A stretch of DNA of 64,000 nt. It comes from an uncultured Chthonomonadaceae bacterium. GTDB lineage: Bacteria > Armatimonadota > Chthonomonadetes > Chthonomonadales > Chthonomonadaceae. The notes beneath the pieces are model-generated. The model saw only the letters and a list, made by a program, of their open reading frames with translations, ran no database searches and was not told the DNA's origin. The number at the start of each line of letters is the position of its first letter. Position 1 is the first letter of the stretch. The position numbers and the translations under genes are program-made. The stretch lies in the NCBI GenBank assembly GCA_963835065.1, contig CAWIEK010000009.1, positions 64,001 to 128,000 of the forward strand, read 5' to 3'. Below are positions 1,363 through 61,352 of the stretch, piece by piece.

Positions 1363-3011
1363 ACCCCGTACCGCCTTCCCATCCAATACGGCAGCAGCCA
1401 GAACGCGCCGTCCATTTCCCGCGTACCTCCCGTCCCGCTGTCGGCCAGATAGGGATTTTCGTTCCACTTGGTTACGCCGCGCTCACCCGGCGGCAGCGGC
1501 GTTGTCAGTTGCCGCTTGCCGAAGCGGTCTAAATCCGGCGCGAAGACAACGTCGGGACGGTGAGAATTCTCCATTTTCCAGTCCCGCAAATCCAGCGGCG
1601 CATCCTGAAGCCACTCCGTAATTGCGTCCACGTCGCAGGGCTTTCCCGCGCAGGCTGTGTAGATGATATTGTAAAAGGGCGAGCGCTCCGGGCGTAAAAT
1701 TGACTGCGTTTGCTCCAGACTCAGCAGGTACAGTTGCCGCAGCATCGGATCGGTTTCCAGCATCAGCAACGGGTAATAGGCGCAGGCGGCCAGTTCATCA
1801 TCGGAATGGTTGTTGTCGCCTTCGGGCGGCAAAACTTTCTGGCGAATTGTATTCAGCGCGTAGCCGTGTTCCTTGATGAGCGTTTGGTAGGCGGCAGCGA
1901 ATCGCTCACAGGGGCTTAGGCGCATGGCAACGCGCAGATGCGACAGCATTTCGAGTGAATTCAGCCCCCGCTCGTTCTTCCATTGCGGATCATTATTCAG
2001 CAGTTCGGGAGTCCACACGCCCCAACTTGTACGCTTACCGTTCGCGCCCACCAGCGTATAGTTGTTGTCCAAAATGTGACTGGTGACGGCGTGGCATACA
2101 TTTGCAATTGCCCGTTTCTCCTCTTCATCCGCCACGAGTTCATAATACACGTACCACGCCAGATAATGCCCATCTATCTCATCTGAAGAGGTATCGCCTT
2201 TGTACAGCATATCGGCGTCAACGGGCGATTGAATCCAGTTGCGCTGCGGCACGGACATTTGCGCGCGCTCATTTCGCCTTACCGCCGCCCGCGCGGGAAA
2301 GCCGGGAATTCCCGTGACCGTCACCAGTTTCAGCAGGGCGTTCAGACTCCGCCGCGCCAAACAACGCGCTTCTTCCTCCTGTGTCACCGCGTACCGAAAA
2401 CACTCCGCGCATAGATATAACGCCGTCCACAATCCATCGTTGTCGCTCGCTTCATACAGAAAACTGTCCAGATCAACCGGACGAGTCAGCAGGCACTCCG
2501 TTACCCAGCCGTCACGATTATGCCGCGCCTGCGTGATTTGCTCGTAATGCGCGGCTTTCGCTTCCCATGTCATGTCTATGGATTCGATACAGGAGAAGCC
2601 GTCCGGCGTTGCAAGCCAGGCGCGGTTTTGCAGGTCAATGGCAATGCCTTCTACGCGGTCATGGGGCAGCCAGCGCTTGCCGCCGAAATAGCGCCAGGTT
2701 CCTTTTTGCAGCCGCGCCGCGCCCCGTTCGCTTCCCACCCACAACGTACCCTCGTTTCCCAATGCGAGGCACGTCGGGTTTTGCAGCGGAAAGCCATCCT
2801 TGCCGGTGAGGAAAAGCGAATGATGTTCCGTATGGATACCTAAGCCGTGTTCCGTTACGGTCCAACGGCAATTTTCAAGCAGGCAATCGGCCTGTAAAAC
2901 CTTTTGGAGACTTACGCCGTCTAACGGATTAAGCGCGTCATAAAATGTCGCAATGTCCTGACGAAACCGGTCGCTCGAAGGCGCATCTTCCTGGCGAGAA
3001 GCAGCATTCAT
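1323..3011 (-). CDS. Hypothetical protein: N-terminal regulator-propeller-like repeats plus helical (glycoside hydrolase-like) domain
   Basis: 562-aa ORF; GTLWVGS and NRAWLATPDG propeller-like motifs; SDNDGLWT and DTSSDEIDGH motifs; last residues are read from the repeat element. Confidence 0.7.
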   Translation of the reverse strand: MNAASRQEDAPSSDRFRQDIATFYDALNPLDGVSLQKVLQADCLLENCRWTVTEHGLGIHTEHHSLFLTGKDGFPLQNPTCLALGNEGTLWVGSERGAARLQKGTWRYFGGKRWLPHDRVEGIAIDLQNRAWLATPDGFSCIESIDMTWEAKAAHYEQITQARHNRDGWVTECLLTRPVDLDSFLYEASDNDGLWTALYLCAECFRYAVTQEEEARCLARRSLNALLKLVTVTGIPGFPARAAVRRNERAQMSVPQRNWIQSPVDADMLYKGDTSSDEIDGHYLAWYVYYELVADEEEKRAIANVCHAVTSHILDNNYTLVGANGKRTSWGVWTPELLNNDPQWKNERGLNSLEMLSHLRVAMRLSPCERFAAAYQTLIKEHGYALNTIRQKVLPPEGDNNHSDDELAACAYYPLLMLETDPMLRQLYLLSLEQTQSILRPERSPFYNIIYTACAGKPCDVDAITEWLQDAPLDLRDWKMENSHRPDVVFAPDLDRFGKRQLTTPLPPGERGVTKWNENPYLADSGTGGTREMDGAFWLLPYWMGRRYGVGVRIQGSGVSLE

Positions 3012-9497: not shown

Positions 9498-9653
9498 AAA
9501 AAAAGATATGTAGAGGCATCGTCGAAATCTTGGCAATGCAGCGCTTCCAGCCCGATGTCTCGTTGTGTCAAGTTGTGGGAGTGAGGCGTCGTGACCTCGT
9601 AAGCGTCAGGGCGAACGGGAGGGGTGGGGACATAGGCTCTTCACCTCCCTTCC
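9498..9653 (-). ncRNA. Putative small RNA or leader unit, copy 1
   Basis: 9507-9622 matches 34070-34185 (reverse complement) at 111/116 nt; begins GGAAGGGAGGTG and ends in a T run. Confidence 0.55.
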
Positions 9654-9705
9654 TGTATGGATAGCACCTGTCTAACATCTATATAGTAGACTTGGTTCTA
9701 CTGTT

Positions 9706-9733
9706 TAGACGGCAGTGTGGGGCAAAAGGTTCA
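9706..9733 (-). promoter_or_regulatory. ECF-sigma-like promoter TGAACC-N16-CGTCTA
   Basis: Same geometry upstream of copy 2 (GAAACC-N16-CGTCAT); A-rich upstream tract. Confidence 0.55.
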
Positions 9734-9872
9734 CTGTTTTTTTATTTTTTAGCGGGATTGTTGTTGCGGGTAGGCTATTCCTGGTGTGGTGTGGGAACGG
9801 GGAAGGGGGCTTACTTCGGGGCTGATCGTTTATCCCTTGCCGGCGGACGCAACGCGCAAGGGGCGCAAAAAG

Positions 9873-12822: not shown

Positions 12823-12950
12823 CTCTGCCGGGTACTGAAAGTACCCGGCAGGACAAAACAAGCGTCTTACAGACGCGATTCTCTATTCACAAATTCCTGC
12901 GTCCGTAGGACGGTTGTACTTTCCTGCCGGGTACTTTCAGTACCCGGAAC
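12823..12950. repeat. Palindromic REP/MITE-like element (CCGGGTACT-AGTACCCGG family)
   Basis: Two inverted hairpins gccgggtactgaaagtacccggc and gccgggtactttcagtacccgg; related copy at 61186-61352. Confidence 0.8.
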
Positions 12951-22247: not shown

Positions 22248-23087
22248 ATGACAAACACACTACGCAAACCTGTTCTGGACGCCGCATTTTGGGCATGTAA
22301 ACCGCTTATAGGCATGGTACACCTGGGCGCGCTGCCGGGAAGTCCGCGCGATACCGGCGAACCGATAGACGCGCTGCTGCAACGCGCCATAGCCGACGCG
22401 CAGGCATTGGAAGCCGGGGGAGCTGACGCCATCATGGTGGAAAACTTCTTCGACGCGCCTTTTGCCAAAGACCATCTGCCGCCGCATACGGTTGCCGCGC
22501 TGACGCGGGCGGTACAGGCCGTGCGAGACGCGACAAATTTGCCGATTGGCGTCAATGCCCTGCGCAATGACGCGCTTGCCGCCATCGCCATCGCGCACGT
22601 TTGCGGCGCGCAGTTTGTTCGTATCAACGTCTTTGTCGGCGCGGCGGTGACGGATCAGGGAATCATCGAGGGCGCGGCGCGGGCGGCCAATCTGTACCGC
22701 CGGGAACTGCGCGCGGACGTGCAGCTATGGGCAGACGTGTTCGTAAAACACGCCGCGCAATTGGGCGCGAACACGCTGGAAGACGCCGCCAAAGACGCCG
22801 TATTGCGCGGGCTTGCCGATGCCCTGATCGTCAGCGGAACCGCAACCGGCAACGCTACCGCCCCCGACGATGTTCGCCGCGTGAAGCAGGCCGCGCCCCA
22901 AACGCCCGTGCTGATCGGCAGCGGCTTTGACGCCGACACCGCGCCCGCATTGCTTGTCCATGCGGATGGCGCGATTGTCGGCACGAGCCTGAAGCGCGAC
23001 GGCCAGGTTGCCAATCCCGTTGATACTTCCCGCGTCCGCAGTCTGCGCCAGGCCATGCGGGGAGAAATGAACCACCCGCTGCGCTAG
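22248..23087 (+). CDS. BtpA/SgcQ family protein
   Basis: IGMVHLGALPGSP; VENFFDAPF; GVNALRND; ADVFVKH. Confidence 0.93.
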   Translation: MTNTLRKPVLDAAFWACKPLIGMVHLGALPGSPRDTGEPIDALLQRAIADAQALEAGGADAIMVENFFDAPFAKDHLPPHTVAALTRAVQAVRDATNLPIGVNALRNDALAAIAIAHVCGAQFVRINVFVGAAVTDQGIIEGAARAANLYRRELRADVQLWADVFVKHAAQLGANTLEDAAKDAVLRGLADALIVSGTATGNATAPDDVRRVKQAAPQTPVLIGSGFDADTAPALLVHADGAIVGTSLKRDGQVANPVDTSRVRSLRQAMRGEMNHPLR

Positions 23088-23106
23088 AGACACAGAGACA
23101 CAGAGG
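23069..23106. repeat. CACAGAG-family repeat (half element)
   Basis: aaccacccgctgcgctagagacacagag is identical to the start of the element at 57195. Confidence 0.75.
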
Positions 23107-23241
23107 AAAAGCAATGCGAGAGGAACGACGAGAGAAACAACCGGCATACTCATGCCCACAGGACAATTGGCCGCTGGCCTAACAACCGGTATTTTATATA
23201 CCGGTTGAAAATGGCAGTCTCATGTTTTACAGGTTTGCCTG

Positions 23242-30276: not shown

Positions 30277-31317
30277 TTAGGTCACTTCCGTACTAATAGT
30301 ATCCTGCATCAGCCGCCAAAGTGCAAATAATTCTTGCGGCTCCACCCGTCTGTTTGGCTTGTGTCTGTTCAGGTTCAATGCTGCGCTTATAGTGAGAGAC
30401 GAGCAAACGAAGCGGAAAGTTTCTGAGGTTAGTGTCTGTCGTGAACAAGTGAACAATTTAGTCTTCTCCCTTGCAGGAAGAAGGTGGCCGAAGGCCGGAT
30501 GAAGGTAGAACCTACCGTTTCCCCGCAGCAGCGCTACAAGGTCGGGACGACCCGCCTGTTGGGCAAGCATGATTGGAGTAACGCCCTTCTTGTTACGATA
30601 ATTCGGATCGCCTCCATGTGCCATGAGCAGACGGAGGCGATCTTCACCATAGTCGCTACTTACAGCGAAATGCAAAGCAGTATCGCCCCCTTCATCTTCC
30701 ATAGAAACGTTCGCGCCATGCTCCAGCAGAAGGCGCGTCATGCCCGTATCACGTACCTCAACAGCTAACATCAGCGGCGTCTTGCCTTCTCTGTCTTGAG
30801 AGTTGACGTTCGCGCCATATTCCAGAAGAAGTTGAACCGTCTCCGAATAGTCACGCCAAATGGCCCAATGCAGAGCGGATACATCTTGTGAGTCTCTGGC
30901 CTTGCAATCCGCGCCATGCGCCAGCATAGTACGAACTAAAAGCGCCTCTTCCGGTTTTTTTTCACGCACAATGATGAAACGATCTGAGAAATGCCAATGC
31001 GCTCCACAAACAAACAGAAACGCCGTCGAACTATCATCTACAAGCGGCGGTGAACGATGCAGTAGCTGCAGCGCCAGTTGCGGCAGGGAAGGCGCGGGCG
31101 AAGCATTGTAGCGCGTGTTCGGGTCGGCTCCCGCGTTGACAAGGAGAAGCGCCTGCTTATTATCGTAGTGTGCAAGAGCGGCAATGAGTTGGCGGTTGAG
31201 GATGTACTGCCGCTTCGCCTGCCATACCCACAGACCACAGCCGCCCGCCAGCAGCACGACAACCAATACTGAAAAAAATAGTAGACGCCGATGTTTCATA
31301 TTCTTCTCATTCGCCAC
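30277..31317 (-). CDS. Membrane-anchored ankyrin-repeat protein
   Basis: N-terminal TM; GANVNSQDREGKTPLMLA-type repeats; the tail after about 30512 reads through a palindromic element. Confidence 0.9.
   Translation of the reverse strand: MANEKNMKHRRLLFFSVLVVVLLAGGCGLWVWQAKRQYILNRQLIAALAHYDNKQALLLVNAGADPNTRYNASPAPSLPQLALQLLHRSPPLVDDSSTAFLFVCGAHWHFSDRFIIVREKKPEEALLVRTMLAHGADCKARDSQDVSALHWAIWRDYSETVQLLLEYGANVNSQDREGKTPLMLAVEVRDTGMTRLLLEHGANVSMEDEGGDTALHFAVSSDYGEDRLRLLMAHGGDPNYRNKKGVTPIMLAQQAGRPDLVALLRGNGRFYLHPAFGHLLPAREKTKLFTCSRQTLTSETFRFVCSSLTISAALNLNRHKPNRRVEPQELFALWRLMQDTISTEVT
30462..30510. repeat. CCGGCCTTCGGCCACCTTCTCCC-family palindromic element
   Basis: Same motif as at 32672-32866 and 52679-52879. 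Confidence 0.8.
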
Positions 31318-32508: not shown

Positions 32509-32671
32509 CCGAAATCCTCCCGCCTCCCCGAAGCGCGTACCCTTAAACCCGGCTCTTCCCCTGTGTTTCGTGTTCCTGCTTCACTTTGGGAACACGACTT
32601 TGCTGCGTTCGGAGGGAGAGGGGAGCGAGTGCCCAAGCCTTGCGCATTGCTATGAACAGGTACGGTGCTTC

Positions 32672-32866
32672 GACTCTCATCCGGCCTTCGGCCACCTTCT
32701 CCCTTTCAGGGAGAAGGCGAATGTGTTCAATGGGCAGTTGAACAGGAGAGGGCAAATCTGTCAGAAAGCCTTGCGTTTTCCATAAACGCCGTATCAACGC
32801 ACCCAATGAACAGTTTAGCCTTCGCCCTGAAAGGGAGAGGTGGCCGAAGGCCGGATGAGGGTCGAA
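32672..32866. repeat. Inverted pair of CCGGCCTTCGGCCACC-family elements
   Basis: ctcatccggccttcggccaccttctccctttcagggagaaggc ... ggtggccgaaggccggatgag. Confidence 0.85.
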
Positions 32867-32935
32867 ACTATCATACCGCGCCTGTTCGCAGCAATACCAC
32901 AATGTTTAGGTGTTCGCACAGGGCGGCTTTCTCTA

Positions 32936-33647: not shown

Positions 33648-33918
33648 AAGTTCCTTTGCGCCTTTCCGCAGCAACGTCACACTATTTGCATGCTTCTGCT
33701 GCATCAAAATTGATTCCTGCTGCAAGCGCATACCCTCAATTCCGGCGCTTCTGTCTGACCGTTCCTGCGTTACTCAAGAAGAGCGGAAATGCGCTGGCCT
33801 TGTGCGGTGCTGTAAACAGGCGTGTTTCGTCCTTCGCGCCCTCTTGACCATACCGCGTTCTTCATAAACACTTACCGTCAGAAAAAAGACAGAAAAATCG
33901 AAAAACCGCAAGAAAAAC

Positions 33919-33946
33919 GAAACCATTTCCCTACTCACGACGTCAT
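33919..33946 (+). promoter_or_regulatory. ECF-sigma-like promoter GAAACC-N16-CGTCAT
   Basis: Same spacing and similar downstream sequence as 9706-9733. Confidence 0.55.
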
Positions 33947-34037
33947 AAAACTGTATAACTGTCTACTTAAAAGCCAGGTGGCGGGCCGTTGACAGTTCAG
34001 AGTTCTTATCAACTCTCCACTCTCAACAATCTAACCT

Positions 34038-34193
34038 GGAAGGGAGGTGCTGGAAGATGCCTGTACATTCCTCCCGTTCGCCCTGACGCTTACGAGGTCA
34101 CGACGCCTCTCTCCTACAACCTGACACAACGAGACATCGGGCTGGAAGCGCTGTATTGCCAAGATTTCGACGCTGCCTCTACATACTCTTTTT
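34038..34193 (+). ncRNA. Putative small RNA or leader unit, copy 2
   Basis: Homologous to 9498-9653; no plus-strand gene follows it (convergent with the MFS gene). Confidence 0.55.
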
Positions 34194-34211: not shown

Positions 34212-35453
34212 CTATTTGCCTTCCTTTGCCTGCTTGCGGTAGTCGCGCATGGAGATCAGCTGCAGGTACGCGCCCACCACCATAATCAGGAAGGCCAGCA
34301 CGAAGGTGTTTTGCGCGCCCTCCCGCCGCAGCAGGGGAATGGCGAATTGGGGCGCAATCGTACCCCGAATGCCGAAGAAACTGGAATGGAGCGCCTGATA
34401 CTGCGCCGCCTTGCCCGGTTCCGCGAACATCAGCGTGGTATTCAGGTAGCCTAAATCAATGCCGGACATACACAGCCCGCTGGCAATCGCCGCCAGGTAC
34501 AGCGCCGACATCCCCCACGCCCCCGCATACAACAATGGTATCGCCAGATTGATGCAGATCGCCGCCAGCACCGTTGCCAATGACCCCTTGCGATCCAGAA
34601 ACGTGCCCCAAAACACATAGCCCACAATCGTCATAATGGACATGATGTTTTGCAGATTGGCGACCTGCGTATTGGAAACGTGAAACTTGTCCACCTGCTG
34701 AATCGGGATCAAGGTCGCGGAGATTAAATTTCCAAAGCCGGAAATAAACACCGAGGCCGTAAACCAGCGAAAGCCGGGATTGCGCTTCAGAATGTGAATG
34801 GTGTCGCGCGCAAACGCGCCCGCTGTCGCCGGATTTTCCTCCGGCAGCACGGCTTGCAGGCGAATCCGGCTGAACGTCCACGCGCTCAAAACGCCGAACG
34901 CGCCGCCGATGAAAAAGCCCGCCCGCCAGTTGATAACGTGGTCCAGCAGCCGCCCCATCACCAGCGCCGATACCAGTGTCGCCAGGCTCATGCCCATGCG
35001 AACGATGCTCATCAAGCGGCCCCGGTGCGCGTCGGGGTAAATCTCCTTCATAATAGCGGTGTACGCGGGCGTGGAAATGGAAAAAATGAGCGGCGTGATA
35101 CAAACGAGGGCGACATACTGCGCCTGCGTGTGCAGCAAGGGAGCGAACAAAAACAGACCGCGCGCCAGCAGCCATGTCCACGTCACAAACGGCATTTTGG
35201 AGCGGCCTTCCATCTGCCGCGCCCATAGGGTAGCGAAGATGTAGCCCAGCGCGGGAGCCGCCGTAATCCAGCCCATCTGCCCTCGCGTGGCGTGTATCTC
35301 GGCGCGCGCGATGCGCAGCACGAAGGTCCAGATGCAGCCCTGATAAATGCCCGCGCACAATCCCGTCACCATGTCCCATTGCCAGGCCGTTCGGGTCTGT
35401 GGGGACATTCTCAGTAAAAAGGCGCGCAAACGGGCGGCAAAATCGGAAATCAA
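34212..35453 (-). CDS. MFS transporter
   Basis: About 12 hydrophobic segments; EIYPDAHRGR; WGTFLDRKG; TTG start overlaps the upstream TGA (TTGA) after GGAG. Confidence 0.9.
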   Translation of the reverse strand: MISDFAARLRAFLLRMSPQTRTAWQWDMVTGLCAGIYQGCIWTFVLRIARAEIHATRGQMGWITAAPALGYIFATLWARQMEGRSKMPFVTWTWLLARGLFLFAPLLHTQAQYVALVCITPLIFSISTPAYTAIMKEIYPDAHRGRLMSIVRMGMSLATLVSALVMGRLLDHVINWRAGFFIGGAFGVLSAWTFSRIRLQAVLPEENPATAGAFARDTIHILKRNPGFRWFTASVFISGFGNLISATLIPIQQVDKFHVSNTQVANLQNIMSIMTIVGYVFWGTFLDRKGSLATVLAAICINLAIPLLYAGAWGMSALYLAAIASGLCMSGIDLGYLNTTLMFAEPGKAAQYQALHSSFFGIRGTIAPQFAIPLLRREGAQNTFVLAFLIMVVGAYLQLISMRDYRKQAKEGK

Positions 35454-38400
35454 GATGTTAGGTCTCCAGAATTGCGTTTTCTGGCCCACGCGACGCCCTG
35501 CGCGATAGCGGCGCGCATGGCGTCATCAAAGCCGTACCAGTCGCAAACAATTTTATCCGCTTCGCGTTGGAGGCCGCAAAACAGCGCCCACCGCTGCTGC
35601 GCTTCTTGTCCAAGCGCAGCATAGGCGGCAAGCCATCTTGAAGCGGCAATCGGTTCCGGCATCTGCCGCCCTTGCGCCTGCGCCCACGTTTGATCGCTCC
35701 GACTCCACTCGTCCAGAAACAGGCCCAGAACGCGGGCAAAATCAGCCGCGTAGGGCTGTTCTTCTCCCACGCCGGAAACGATTCGCTGCCGCGCATGAAG
35801 CGCAGAAACGCGCTGATTGGACGCGCCCTGATTTATCACTTCCCCTCGCGCTATCATATCGCCAAGCGTCAGTTTGGGCAGTGGCGTCGTGTTCAGGACG
35901 GCGGACGGCGGCAAAGTCACCGTTCCGGTTTCTGTTCCGGGCAGGATGGCATGAAGCCGCGTCACAAAATCGGCTTCAAGTTCGGCGCGAATATGCAACA
36001 TCCGGTCGGCCAAATCCGCCAGTTCGGCAACGGGAAACGTCGCCGGGTCAGGCACAGGAACGCGGTACAATTCTTCCTTTCCGATGTGGTTGTTGGTAGA
36101 AAAAAGATTTATCATGTAGGCGACAGGTTTGCTGACAATGAAAGCAAGAAGCGCCCTGCCGGTTTGAACCTCTGCTGTAGGCGCAAGCGAGATGCGCCAC
36201 AACTCATTCGTAAATGCAATCGGGTGAGTTGCGTCCCGTTCAAACCAGGTTGCAATCAAGGTGTCTCGCGTATTCAAACGGGCGACTTGACGCAAAACAA
36301 TGCCGAATTCACGGGCTGGTAGTTGTTGAACGGCTTCCAGATTCCTCGAGGCGGTAATGTTGGCAGTCGTAAATCCGGTGTTTGAACCAGGTGGAAGCGG
36401 CCTGGCCCAATCGGAAGGAATAGCGGGCAATGGCGCAAACAAATTCGCATTTTCGCCTTTGTAGATTGCCACATCTCCTTGCGCATAACTCCCATTCCTA
36501 CCTTTTACCCGTAATGGATTAAGATGCGTCGCATTCACGTCGCCCTGTTTGAAATCCGAAAACGTTTGAGCAAGCAGGGTTCCGAGCGTGAACGTCAATT
36601 CGTTGCTGACCATTCTTGCCTGCTGCCAGATTGCCGCATCGGTCGGGTTGTTGGAAACCAGCCACGCGCCGTTCCACGTTCCATTTTGCGGCACGGCGTC
36701 TACTACGGACGGGGCTGTAAGTAGGACATGGCCGGCCTGCGCGTCCGGGGTGTCATTGCCGCCGCCGACAACAATGGTCTGCGCGTCAATAGAATGTTCG
36801 ACGGCCACGATGCCGACAGCCTGATCCACGCCGGGAAACAGCATATCGCCGCGAAAAAAGCGGACGGCGGCGAAGGGCGCGAACGGCGGCGTTCGCAGCA
36901 GGTTCCGCGCCGCTTTCGCGCTTGGATCGCCGAAGATCGTCAGAGGCACAATAAACGCCATGCGCCCGAACTCGGCTAGATAGTAAAGCCCCAACTTCAG
37001 AAACAGCAGGTACAGGTTCAGGTCACCCGATAGTGCCGCCGCATAAAACGGCGCGCTGCGATATCGCTCTGCTGCCAGCGCCTCGCGCTTGCTCGTGACG
37101 TAGGGCGGGTTCGAAATCACGTATTGAAAGCCCGCCACAAAGCCGTTTGTTCGCGCCTTGATCGGGTAGGCTTCATCAGCCAGTCGCTCATTCAGCGTGT
37201 CGGGAATCGTGGAGGACTGCCCGGAAACATGCGGGTCGTCCAGCACGTCGCGCGGCAATTCCAGGCTATCCGTATTGACAATATTGAAACGGTCAATCGG
37301 GTAGTTCTGCCCCGCCTGCTGTAAAACCGCCAGATCGTTCAGCGTCTGAATCAGCAGGTTCATTTCGGCAAGGTAGCAGGCGAAGGGCAGCAGTTCCATG
37401 CCGTGAAACAGGCGGATCAGGTCTTCCACAAATCGGCGAGCCAGTTCCACGCGCAGGTTCGGGACGCTCCGTAAGCGCATTTTCATCCTCCGGCAGATGT
37501 TCGCGGCGGCAGATCGAGGCCACAAGGGCGCGGCGATAGCGGCGGGCCGCATGGACAAGAAAACTGCCGCTGCCGCAGGCCGGGTCGAGGATGGAACGCC
37601 CGATGACCGCCGCGCCCTCATAGCCGAGCAGGTCAAGCATGTACTCCACAACGCGAGGCCGGGTGAGAAAATGGCCCTTACGCTTTTGCGCCACCCGGTC
37701 AATATAGTTTTCGTAGGTGAAGCCGATCACGTCACTGGCAATATCGGCAAATGAGTAGCGGCACAGAAACGCAAGCGTTTCGAGCAGCAGAAAGTCGTCG
37801 GGAACAAACCAGTTGAAAACCGGCTGCTGAAAGAAGTGCAGATAGTAGTTGCCCGCTTTGCGCGTGAGCAAATTGCAATAAATATCGCCCACAATGCTGA
37901 CGCTTTCCAGTTCCCAAAACTGGCGGCGCGCGTAATCCAGCCACACTTGAAAGCCGCCGTTGCTTGCCATGCGCGGCTGCATCACCTGCTTGTCTTCCAG
38001 AACGCGAACAAGCAGCATACGCACAAAGAAAACATAAGCCACCTGTTCGGCAAACACTTCCGGCTTGATGTCCTCGGCGTCCGTCTGTCGGTTGCTCCAC
38101 ACCTGGTAGGCATGAGCGACAAGCAGGCGGCCACTGCTTTCAAATCGCAGCGAGTACAGAACGCCGCTGATGCGCAAAACATTTTCTTTCCAGATGTTGA
38201 ACTGCGCGTTAAGCGCGGGGGTTAAACTCCTGCCCTGCGACTTGACAAGCACCGGTTCAATTTGCTCCAACTCCTGTTTTGTGCTTTCACCAGGTTTGAG
38301 CGCATTCAAAGCCGCTGCAATGCTTTCCGGCTGATACGTGAAATTACTTAACAATTTTTTGGAAGCGTCCTGCCATTCCGACAGCAGGCGCGTTTGCGTG

Positions 38401-52678: not shown

Positions 52679-52879
52679 CTTCTACCCTCATCCGGCCTCC
52701 GGCCACCTTCTCCCTGCAAGGGAGAAGGCCAATGTGGTAGTCTGGTGCGCTGATTGTGGAGTTGGTTGGTGTATAAGGTTCGCGCGCTCGTTTCCCATCC
52801 CTAATACAACCGCCCACTGAATAGTTTAGCCTTCTCCCTTGCAGGGAGAAGGTGGCCGGAGGCCGGATGAGGGTAGAAA
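52679..52879. repeat. Inverted pair of CCGGCCTYCGGCCACC-family elements
   Basis: ttctaccctcatccggcctccggccaccttctccctgcaagggagaaggc and its reverse complement. Confidence 0.88.
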
Positions 52880-52922: not shown

Positions 52923-53230
52923 TGCGGGGAACGGGACTCGAACCCGTACGTCTTACGACCCAGGTTTTTCTTACCACTACAGTTTTCACTGCCCGTAAGG
53001 TTTGTGGTCTGGACCATACCTTCTCCATATCCCATAGGATTTAGGAGGTTTCCATCTGGCCTCTACACCTTCTCAAGGGAACGAATTTGTATTCCCTGAG
53101 CTTGGCTCGGTATTGCCATGTTAAATTCTAACGAAGGGTTCACCGAATTTGGAAACTTCTACATTGAACTTTTCAGTTCAAGCACTCAATTTGTTTAAGA
53201 CCTGTGCGGCTGCCATTACGCCACCCCCGC
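52923..53230 (-). tRNA. trnL: tRNA-Leu(UAA), intron-containing; exons 53230-53197 and 52969-52923
   Basis: Acceptor GCGGGGG/TCCCCGC+A; anticodon stem CAGGT/ACCTG with spliced loop CTTAAAA; variable arm GTC-GTAA-GAC; T arm ACGGG-TTCGAGT-CCCGT; CCA not encoded. Confidence 0.96.
52970..53196 (-). ncRNA. Group I self-splicing intron (IC3-like), 227 nt, no ORF
   Basis: Follows U34 and ends in G; P1 CUU/GAG; P3 GTTTCCA/TGGAAAC; P4 TTCGGT/ACCGAG; P7 G-A-GGCCA/TGGTC-C. Confidence 0.93.
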
Positions 53231-61185: not shown

Positions 61186-61352
61186 TTCACCAACCGGACG
61201 CTTGGTTCCGGGTATTGAAAATACCCGGCAGGAAAGTACAAGCGTCCTGCGGACGCGGGAATCTTTATACAGAGTTGCGTCCGCAGGACGCTTGGCGGAA
61301 CGCCACCGAGACGGGTATTTTCAATGCCCGGAACCAAGCGTCCGGTAGTGAA
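61186..61352. repeat. Palindromic REP/MITE-like element
   Basis: Terminal inverted repeats ccggacgcttggttccgggtattgaaaatacccg / cgggtattttcaatgcccggaaccaagcgtccgg; related to 12823-12950. Confidence 0.85.

Follow-up and report, generated by a model that had tools for sequence, protein, structure and literature searches.

The two related intergenic loci described here belong to a dispersed family of putative mini-genes, in which a predicted ECF-type promoter and a strong Shine-Dalgarno sequence (SD) typically precede a mini-ORF and a paired 3' RNA domain. Judged by its conservation in three genomes, the mini-ORF is under selection, and its C terminus corresponds to an RxPP stalling motif in which a stop codon takes the place of the A-site proline. 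The scope of the family is one uncultured genus, within which the copy number is 13, about 46, or about 160.

Two related loci in the analysed window

The window, the whole stretch of 64,000 nucleotides that was analysed (G000:C9:64001-128000), is part of an 8.0 Mb assembly with 57% GC. A repeat finder detected an inverted repeat pair at 9499-9622 and 34070-34193 (124 nt, 94%), and pairwise alignment of the two loci, copies 1 and 2, showed that they share a 116-nt core with 5 mismatches, A-tracts, a second GTCTAC, and a T run. The promoter boxes are GAACC in copy 1 and GAAACC in copy 2, followed by N16-CGTC, and GGAAGGGAGGTG is located 8 nt (copy 1) or 7 nt (copy 2) 5' of an ATG. All features that the initial annotation had listed for the two loci were recovered by these methods where it had placed them, and the two peptides, 21 aa in copy 1 and 9 aa (MPVHSSRSP) in copy 2, read as it had written them. 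The elements of both copies are as follows.

9737..9751, minus strand: copy 1, A-tract 5' of the -35 box, possibly UP-element-like; present in most family copies
9706..9732, minus strand: copy 1, predicted ECF-type promoter, based on motif: GAACC 9732-9728, N16, CGTCTA 9711-9706
9685..9702, minus strand: copy 1, predicted RNA 5' end with putative start site: small hairpin with the second GTCTAC
9642..9653, minus strand: copy 1, Shine-Dalgarno GGAAGGGAGGTG, complementary to the host 16S 3' end
9606..9633, minus strand: copy 1, mini-ORF, ATG to Arg-Ser-Pro-TGA, 28 nt as assembled
9583..9598, minus strand: copy 1, hairpin P1, 5 bp with a 6-nt loop, 7 nt 3' of the stop
9562..9582, minus strand: copy 1, unpaired A/C-rich linker
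9513..9561, minus strand: copy 1, long irregular hairpin P2 with invariant top GCGC-UGYAUU-GCC
9498..9512, minus strand: copy 1, invariant CATA and pyrimidine/T run, no canonical terminator
33883..33946, plus strand: copy 2, A-tracts and promoter: GAAACC 33919-33924, N16, CGTCAT 33941-33946
33947..34037, plus strand: copy 2, longer 5' leader (B subfamily) with the second GTCTAC at 33961-33966
34038..34049, plus strand: copy 2, Shine-Dalgarno
34057..34086, plus strand: copy 2, in-frame mini-ORF of 9 residues, ending in Arg-Ser-Pro-TGA
34094..34109, plus strand: copy 2, hairpin P1
34110..34130, plus strand: copy 2, A/C-rich linker
34131..34179, plus strand: copy 2, hairpin P2
34180..34193, plus strand: copy 2, CATA and T run

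The T run of copy 2 stops 18 nt short of the stop codon of a convergent MFS gene (34212-35489, minus strand). In the family, the layout is an A-rich tract, an AAC-N15/16-(C/T)GTCTA promoter, a variable leader, a strong SD that matches the host 16S end, and the mini-ORF, followed by 7 nt, P1, an A/C-rich linker of 22-25 nt, P2, CATA, and a pyrimidine run. The 5'-end hairpin with the second GTCTAC is weak or missing in some copies.

Other repeats and RNA-like features are present as well. Palindromic repeat families occur in the window at 12828-12950, 61193-61346, 23065-23133, 30450-30516, and 32664-32872, and one palindromic family, with 160 loci genome-wide, is often found just upstream of the cassettes. 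An intergenic match to the Rfam group I intron model (RF00028, 53.4 bits with a gathering threshold of 50) lies at 52992-53207 on the minus strand, and an inverted repeat of 53 nt (52680-52878) borders the intergenic region. Elsewhere in the assembly, ARAGORN called an array of 16 tRNAs (G000:C49:430274-432286) and, in a CRISPR array region, a tRNA with a stop (TTA) anticodon that is likely false (G000:C42:1858-1953).

A multicopy family within one genus

The initial annotation had taken the two loci for members of a multicopy family, and they are indeed 2 of 162 near-complete copies in their own genome (G000): blastn with a 122-nt core gave 162 matches, nearly all full length, and an HMM built from these recovered the same 162 (nhmmer). 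The core was also found in both other genomes of this Chthonomonadaceae genus, with 13 model matches in G001 and 47, one of them weak, in G002 (about 46 copies). The family consists of whole units only, since 162 SD-P1 matches and 162 P2 matches in G000 included no orphans of either, and of 159 promoter pieces found by HMM, 3 were orphans.

Outside the genus, blastn of the core gave no match in 38 relatives. Model searches, in which only 24-53 candidates were scored per genome, gave nothing convincing in the other 65 of 68 genomes of the order, where one match in G038 (E 0.004) is without P1 and without the motif, or in 150 genomes of the phylum, with one partial match (E 0.003). In a pattern scan of genome contigs, 11 of the 12 matches outside the Chthonomonadaceae were rejected as chance. 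The remaining match, L072, is a genuine family copy. Its contig, labelled Solirubrobacteraceae, looks chimeric, with a truncated actinobacterial gene joined to an unrelated gene at the cassette; at 1473-1610 (minus strand), core and ORF are complete and enclosed by 8-bp direct repeats, and promoter and SD are absent. Pattern scans of metagenome contigs gave 0 and 13 matches, the 13 by chance, and a scan of viral contigs gave 0. None of the Rfam 15 covariance models matched the family at the gathering threshold (best E 5.1), in agreement with the earlier view that the family cannot be assigned to a known RNA class.

The mini-ORF ends in a stalling-type motif followed by a stop codon

Codons were tallied in 199 copies, comprising 158 from G000 (4 of the 162 were omitted as assembly or tandem duplicates), 31 of the about 46 from G002, and 10 of the 13 from G001; one of the 199 is without the hairpin search pattern, leaving 198. 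The ATG frame is kept in 185 of the 190 copies with an assigned ATG, with 8-11 codons leading into one stop. In-frame ORFs vary in length between 24, 27, 30, and 33 nt, and none is below 8 codons. Five G001 copies have ORFs of 45-48 nt with GTG, TTG, or CTG starts, chosen in frame by the script, and 3 of the 198 copies were given no start by the script, two of which are in frame by eye. Copy 1 is off-frame by one base, an extra C in a C run, which is possibly an assembly error. Such exceptions account for 5 of 156 ATG-assigned copies in G000, and one of the five (not copy 1) has a second, in-frame ATG. Orthologues of the GNAT gene next to copy 1 were not found in G001 or G002. Strain duplicates are seen as overlaps of 93-99% over 4-17 kb between many contig ends in G000, and frameshifts interrupt some genes, so that single-base indels in this assembly are suspect. 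The initial annotation had concluded from the different frames of the two peptides that the conserved entity appears to be RNA or DNA rather than protein. This was wrong, since the start codon, the frame, and the last three residues are kept in three genomes, and few copies deviate by one base as copy 1 does.

The N-terminal residues are free to vary, and the C terminus is nearly fixed. The last codon encodes Pro in 196 of 198 copies (CCC 159, CCT 22, CCG 12, CCA 3), position -2 is Ser (139), Pro (51), Ala (7), or Gln (1), and position -3 is Arg (182, with four Arg codons in use), Leu (10), or His (6). The stop codon is TGA in 173 copies, TAA in 24, and TAG in 1. A C after the stop codon is a weak termination context, and the base 3' of the stop is C in 148 of 162 copies. 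The distance from stop to P1 is 7 nt in 193 of 198 copies, and three of these spacer bases vary freely. RxPP sequences (x = Ser, Ala, Gly, or Pro) and HGPP have been selected as stallers (PMC7897499, PMC10951233), and the family ORFs have Arg or His in 188, x from this set in 197, and Pro in 196 of the 198 copies. Leader peptides of the NSP-stop and NAP-stop type are described as stalling with the stop codon in the A site (PMC10987492), and CliM is described as one peptide that is able to arrest either elongation or termination (PMC13183943). The cited arrest-peptide papers also indicate that RAPP by itself is often insufficient for arrest.

Host genes avoid the R-[SPAG]-P-stop ending. Based on gene calls made in this analysis, Arg occupies position -3 in 0 of 69 host genes ending in [SPAG]-Pro versus 129 of 1682 ending in [SPAG]-non-Pro (Fisher p 0.008), and with a looser threshold in 1 of 92 genes ending in [SPAG]-Pro. 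Internal RxPP in host proteins is depleted sevenfold (11 observed versus 79.5 expected). Products of read-through or +1 frameshifting were considered and rejected, as the frames 3' of the stop are not kept, and so was selenocysteine insertion (UGA with a SECIS element), as 25 of 198 copies use TAA or TAG and the downstream sequence contains indels and in-frame stops.

A paired 3' RNA domain

RNAalifold on 23 sequences predicted P1 and a long, bulged P2. In the refined fold, 97.6% of 460 cells are paired, with 11 double-sided changes, compared to 43-57% in slid controls. Among the copies of G000, pairing reaches 99-100% in P1 and in the middle and upper parts of P2, and one outer pair is mostly unpaired. 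One-sided pair changes are all G-U on the promoter's strand, which supports the structured 3' part proposed before. The possible pseudoknot that had been suggested is not supported: across species, just 69% and 75% of the cells in its two helices are paired, compared to 94-100% for the alternative hairpins. Most of the double-sided changes are found in a single G001 subfamily, and many of the 20 pairs never vary. The top of P2 is invariant in sequence, the folding energy is no better than that of shuffled sequences (z -0.2 and +0.6), and no intrinsic terminator was called at the copies. With an ordinary folding energy and no called terminator, P2 may be a recognition site rather than a terminator.

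Predicted promoters and metatranscriptome matches

The strict AAC-N15/16-(C/T)GTCTA pattern is present in 116 of 162 G000 copies, and the HMM detects the promoter in 159. AAC at -35, CGT(C) at -10, and a spacer within 14-17 bp are as expected for an ECF-sigma promoter, and the assignment made in the initial annotation agrees with the B. subtilis sigma M, W, and X promoters, for which AAC at -35 and CGTC at -10 are given in PMC5758882. Outside the cassettes, the strict pattern occurs at 44 intergenic sites, 17 of which are within 350 nt of a co-directional gene. The same core stands behind at least two unrelated promoter types, as some G001 and G002 copies differ: a G001 subfamily (L006, L009, L012, L015, and L018) has a promoter-like TTCTAAA-N16-CATATAGT, together with non-ATG starts, ORFs of 15-16 residues, and a long GC-rich leader hairpin, and several G002 copies show a third, related promoter-like form.

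Core-matching contigs were found in five of six RNA runs of metatranscriptomes, with none in X4. Matches in four runs extend over 100-170 nt of the core at about 85-93% and come from relatives; one contig of 186 nt covers the leader, SD, and core, and two continue 104 and about 390 nt past the 3' end. The RNA runs were picked for sharing words with the window, and only 4-6% of the words are present in seven runs. As strand, ends, and level cannot be read from these contigs and DNA may be their source, the support for transcription is weak.

A possible ribosome trap

These features suggest a model in which the copies are stand-alone mini-genes whose main use is to trap ribosomes, and we consider the chance of this to be a little under even; it is probable that the mini-ORF is translated and slow to terminate. 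The ECF-type promoter would produce an RNA of ~190-250 nt from each copy under stress, and this RNA would load one ribosome on the SD and mini-ORF. Once the stop codon occupies the A site, with Pro in the P site, the ribosome would stall. The mRNA entry channel ends 7 nt after the A-site codon, and P1 would rest there and reinforce the pause, while P2, displayed on the linker, may dock on the ribosome or on a partner protein. The family would then be a dose-dependent trap for ribosomes together with their peptidyl-tRNA-Pro and release factor, which could result in a translation brake or in ribosome storage. What argues for such a trap is that the frame, the Pro-stop motif, the 7-nt spacing, the paired 3' domain, and intact copies are conserved, whereas the ordinary folding energy of the 3' domain and the origin of most covariation in one G001 subfamily speak against it. 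If true, the stalled ribosome-RNA complex itself would be the gene product, with no need for a downstream target, and whether termination is blocked by R-x-P-stop could be tested on the family as a minimal natural system.

The hibernation factor HPF/RaiA (PF02482) was found in only 9 of 41 Chthonomonadaceae genomes versus 22 of 26 in sister families. A replacement of HPF by the mini-genes was rejected: PF02482 was not detected in the three carriers, but neither was it in about 30 other genomes of the 41, so that there is no specific replacement signal.

Spacing and orientation on the chromosome

The copies are intergenic, with 3 of 162 overlapping a called gene, and they are over-dispersed: only 4 of 105 gaps between neighbouring copies are shorter than 10 kb versus 28.5 for uniform placement (0/1000 simulations). 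A control repeat of 160 loci was not over-dispersed (35 versus 27 gaps shorter than 10 kb), and of three smaller control repeats, one was mildly so. Gap length depends on orientation, with medians of 21 kb for head-to-head, 36-38 kb for tandem, and 47.5 kb for back-to-back copies (p 8e-4; 0/5000 permutations; p 0.003 with a context-matched null). The DNA behind the copies is accessory-like, and this is one-sided. GC is lower for 3-4.5 kb behind the promoter, and in each of the four orientation classes, genes behind the promoter are shorter and have a lower GC3 than those ahead of it (GC3 difference 0.047, null 0.001, 0/3000). For the G001 and G002 copies, a G000 orthologue was present for 19 of 41 upstream flanks versus 33 of 41 downstream flanks.

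A simple trans-acting role, and hence a trap that acts purely in trans, leaves this even, orientation-dependent spacing and one-sided accessory DNA unexplained, and they hint that translation may be linked to how the chromosome is organised or how genes are taken up. It is conceivable, although we regard it as unlikely, that the stalled ribosome serves as a shield or anchor that protects or tethers the RNA, with P2 (by binding a protein) or a bulky nascent complex as a locally acting effector, and that the copies separate core DNA from accessory islets as polar boundaries about every 40-50 kb. Apart from the placement data, the invariant top of P2 and the missing canonical terminator are in line with such a boundary. 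However, in G002 the orientation effect has the same direction and is not significant (10 versus 10 gaps, p 0.27), the spacing could also stem from insertion immunity or from loss of unstable neighbours, and the partner protein of P2 is hypothetical.

Spread and sequence evolution

Inverted ends of 19 bp, 419-539 bp apart, enclose 15 of the 162 copies, which all belong to the B subfamily, and at 8 of these 15, there are 10-bp target duplications with 9-10 of 10 bases matching. The ends match those of full-length ISAs1 elements in G002, which carry no cassette, and neither full-length elements nor an ISAs1 transposase were found in G000 or G001. The other 147 copies, including both window copies, are without a pair of ISAs1 ends and have ragged flanks. 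The earlier statement that terminal inverted repeats are lacking therefore applies to the two window copies and not to the family. ISAs1-type ends without a cassette occur at G000:C48:46866 and other lone sites, and a short fragment after one of these resembles an ISAs1 transposase in its motif.

Of 27 G002 copies with an identifiable neighbour, 12 have a G000 copy beside the orthologue, and among five such pairs that were aligned in full, some share flank sequence. The cores at orthologous sites have genome-specific states: in 12 of 13 pairs, the orthologue ranks only 30-111 of 161 in similarity, and in the remaining pair, it ranks 2. This indicates concerted evolution, with the core being homogenised within each genome, so that copies are not independent and the counts above overstate the support. 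Next to the MFS orthologues in G001 and G002, no cassette occupies the site that corresponds to copy 2. The core does not show the decay that is seen in flanks and transposon ends.

The copies could also be a selfish element, such as a CreT-like RNA toxin or the substrate of a mobility enzyme, whose promoter, mini-ORF, and hairpins serve its own copying or retention with ISAs1 as one vehicle. We consider this improbable. The ISAs1 ends and target duplications, the variation in copy number within one genus, and the combination of SD, start, short ORF, and hairpin, which is the anatomy of CreT (PMC8501985), are what one would expect from such an element, but the full-length ISAs1 elements without cassette, the large majority of copies without paired ends, the sites that persist between species, and the absence of half-copies are not. 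Moreover, no enzyme gene recurs next to the copies, no copies were found in viral contigs, there are no tandem rare codons, and the spacers of the six CRISPR arrays found gave a best match of only 17 nt to the copies (E 2.1).

Two more specific origins were rejected. As a target of an integrase, the family should have displaced half-copies, of which there are none. As retron msr-msd RNA, it gave no model match in four RT loci, and the fold is without long terminal inverted repeats. The three genomes of the genus each have an RT-domain frame of 484-503 aa with a long N-terminal extension, 3' of a SWIM/BRCT-like gene and with no cassette near (G000:C50:52695-53327, G001:C2:1807188-1807823, and G002:C6:132948-133580; L104-L106), which we assume to resemble retron RTs of the myxobacterial type. 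Behind a second RT in G000 lie a Cas1-like frame and a CRISPR array with about 27 repeats (G000:C49:681660-685965; L103).

Neighbouring genes

Arrest motifs usually work in cis, and the family could regulate its neighbours as an attenuator leader, like the SecM, ApdA, and TnaC leaders, or as an antisense promoter that reads into a convergent gene. There are 61 copies with a co-directional downstream gene, at a median distance of 220 nt, which would suit this role, but a convergent gene lies ahead of 100 of 161 copies, and copies in gaps between co-directional genes are antisense in 60 cases and sense in 25 (p 2e-4). In addition, the 319 neighbour proteins fall into 268 clusters, the largest with 6 members, with no recurring neighbour or enzyme family, and the neighbours differ between species. 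The convergent genes and unrelated neighbours rule out a shared leader role, and cis regulation in any form seems very unlikely.

Finally, that the family is a neutral, MITE-like repeat whose apparent constraint results from recent spread and gene conversion, as the ISAs1 ends of one subfamily, the species-specific core states at orthologous sites, and the ordinary folding energy might suggest, is barely credible and already largely refuted by the codon-position and frame data, i.e., synonymous-biased change, three stop codons, and length changes that preserve the frame, with further counterevidence in compensatory pairs in three genomes, a core that is kept as flanks and ends decay, and the absence of fragments.

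When the ribosome trap is considered together with the placement data, the family may tentatively be viewed as a new gene class: host-maintained RNAs under an alternative sigma factor, whose product would be a ribosome parked at an R-x-P stop, present in ~160 copies at polar core/accessory-border intervals, and serving either as a ribosome store that is switched by stress or as anchors of chromosome domains.

Comparison with known systems

The RAPP/RxPP arrest peptides have the same C terminus of Arg/His-[Ser/Ala/Pro]-Pro, a motif that is avoided in the host proteome, but they stall with a Pro or Gly codon in the A site, whereas the family has a stop codon there in every tallied copy. The NSP-stop and NAP-stop leaders (PMC10987492) are the precedent for a Pro-stop with the stop in the A site. 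Arrest peptides come from single leader ORFs that include a sensor domain and regulate the co-directional gene behind them. The mini-genes encode 8-16 residues, without a sensor or a fixed downstream gene, and differ further in having their own alternative-sigma promoter, a conserved 3' RNA domain, and up to ~160 copies.

Short ORFs that end in Pro-stop and are followed by C-rich unpaired RNA are also characteristic of the TnaC-type leaders, which are single-copy cis attenuators, and minigenes that drain peptidyl-tRNA are known from phage toxicity assays. Neither has a conserved 3' hairpin domain or is dispersed, and the mini-gene family has both properties.

In its build, the family is closest to CreT of the CreTA system, a small RNA with a strong SD, a start codon, a mini-ORF, a stop, and an essential downstream hairpin that, according to PMC8501985, ties up translation components. 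In that account, CreT sequesters a single tRNA by means of two consecutive rare codons, is repressed by CreA and Cas, and is located at cas loci. The codons of the mini-genes are not rare as a rule (CCC, CCG, CGC, and TCG are common), their motif is at the stop, and they are found genome-wide.

With MITEs derived from ISAs1, 15 copies of the family have in common that they are non-autonomous elements of about 450-480 bp with the ends of a resident IS, and eight of these 15 also have 10-bp target duplications. Bacterial MITEs that reportedly carry promoters or small RNAs include the Correia elements (PMC5039591) and MITEAba12 (PMC6382973). In contrast to known MITEs, which decay, most copies of the family are without ends, fragments are absent, the spacing is even, and the passenger is better conserved and older than its shell; hence, the family is a MITE only in a minority of its copies. 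A literature search, in which subscription journals were mostly outside the scope, gave no description of such a family. On this comparison, its design was found in none of the described families: the mini-genes appear to combine a function like that of the RxP and NAP-stop peptides with a CreT-like build, and to be a member of neither.
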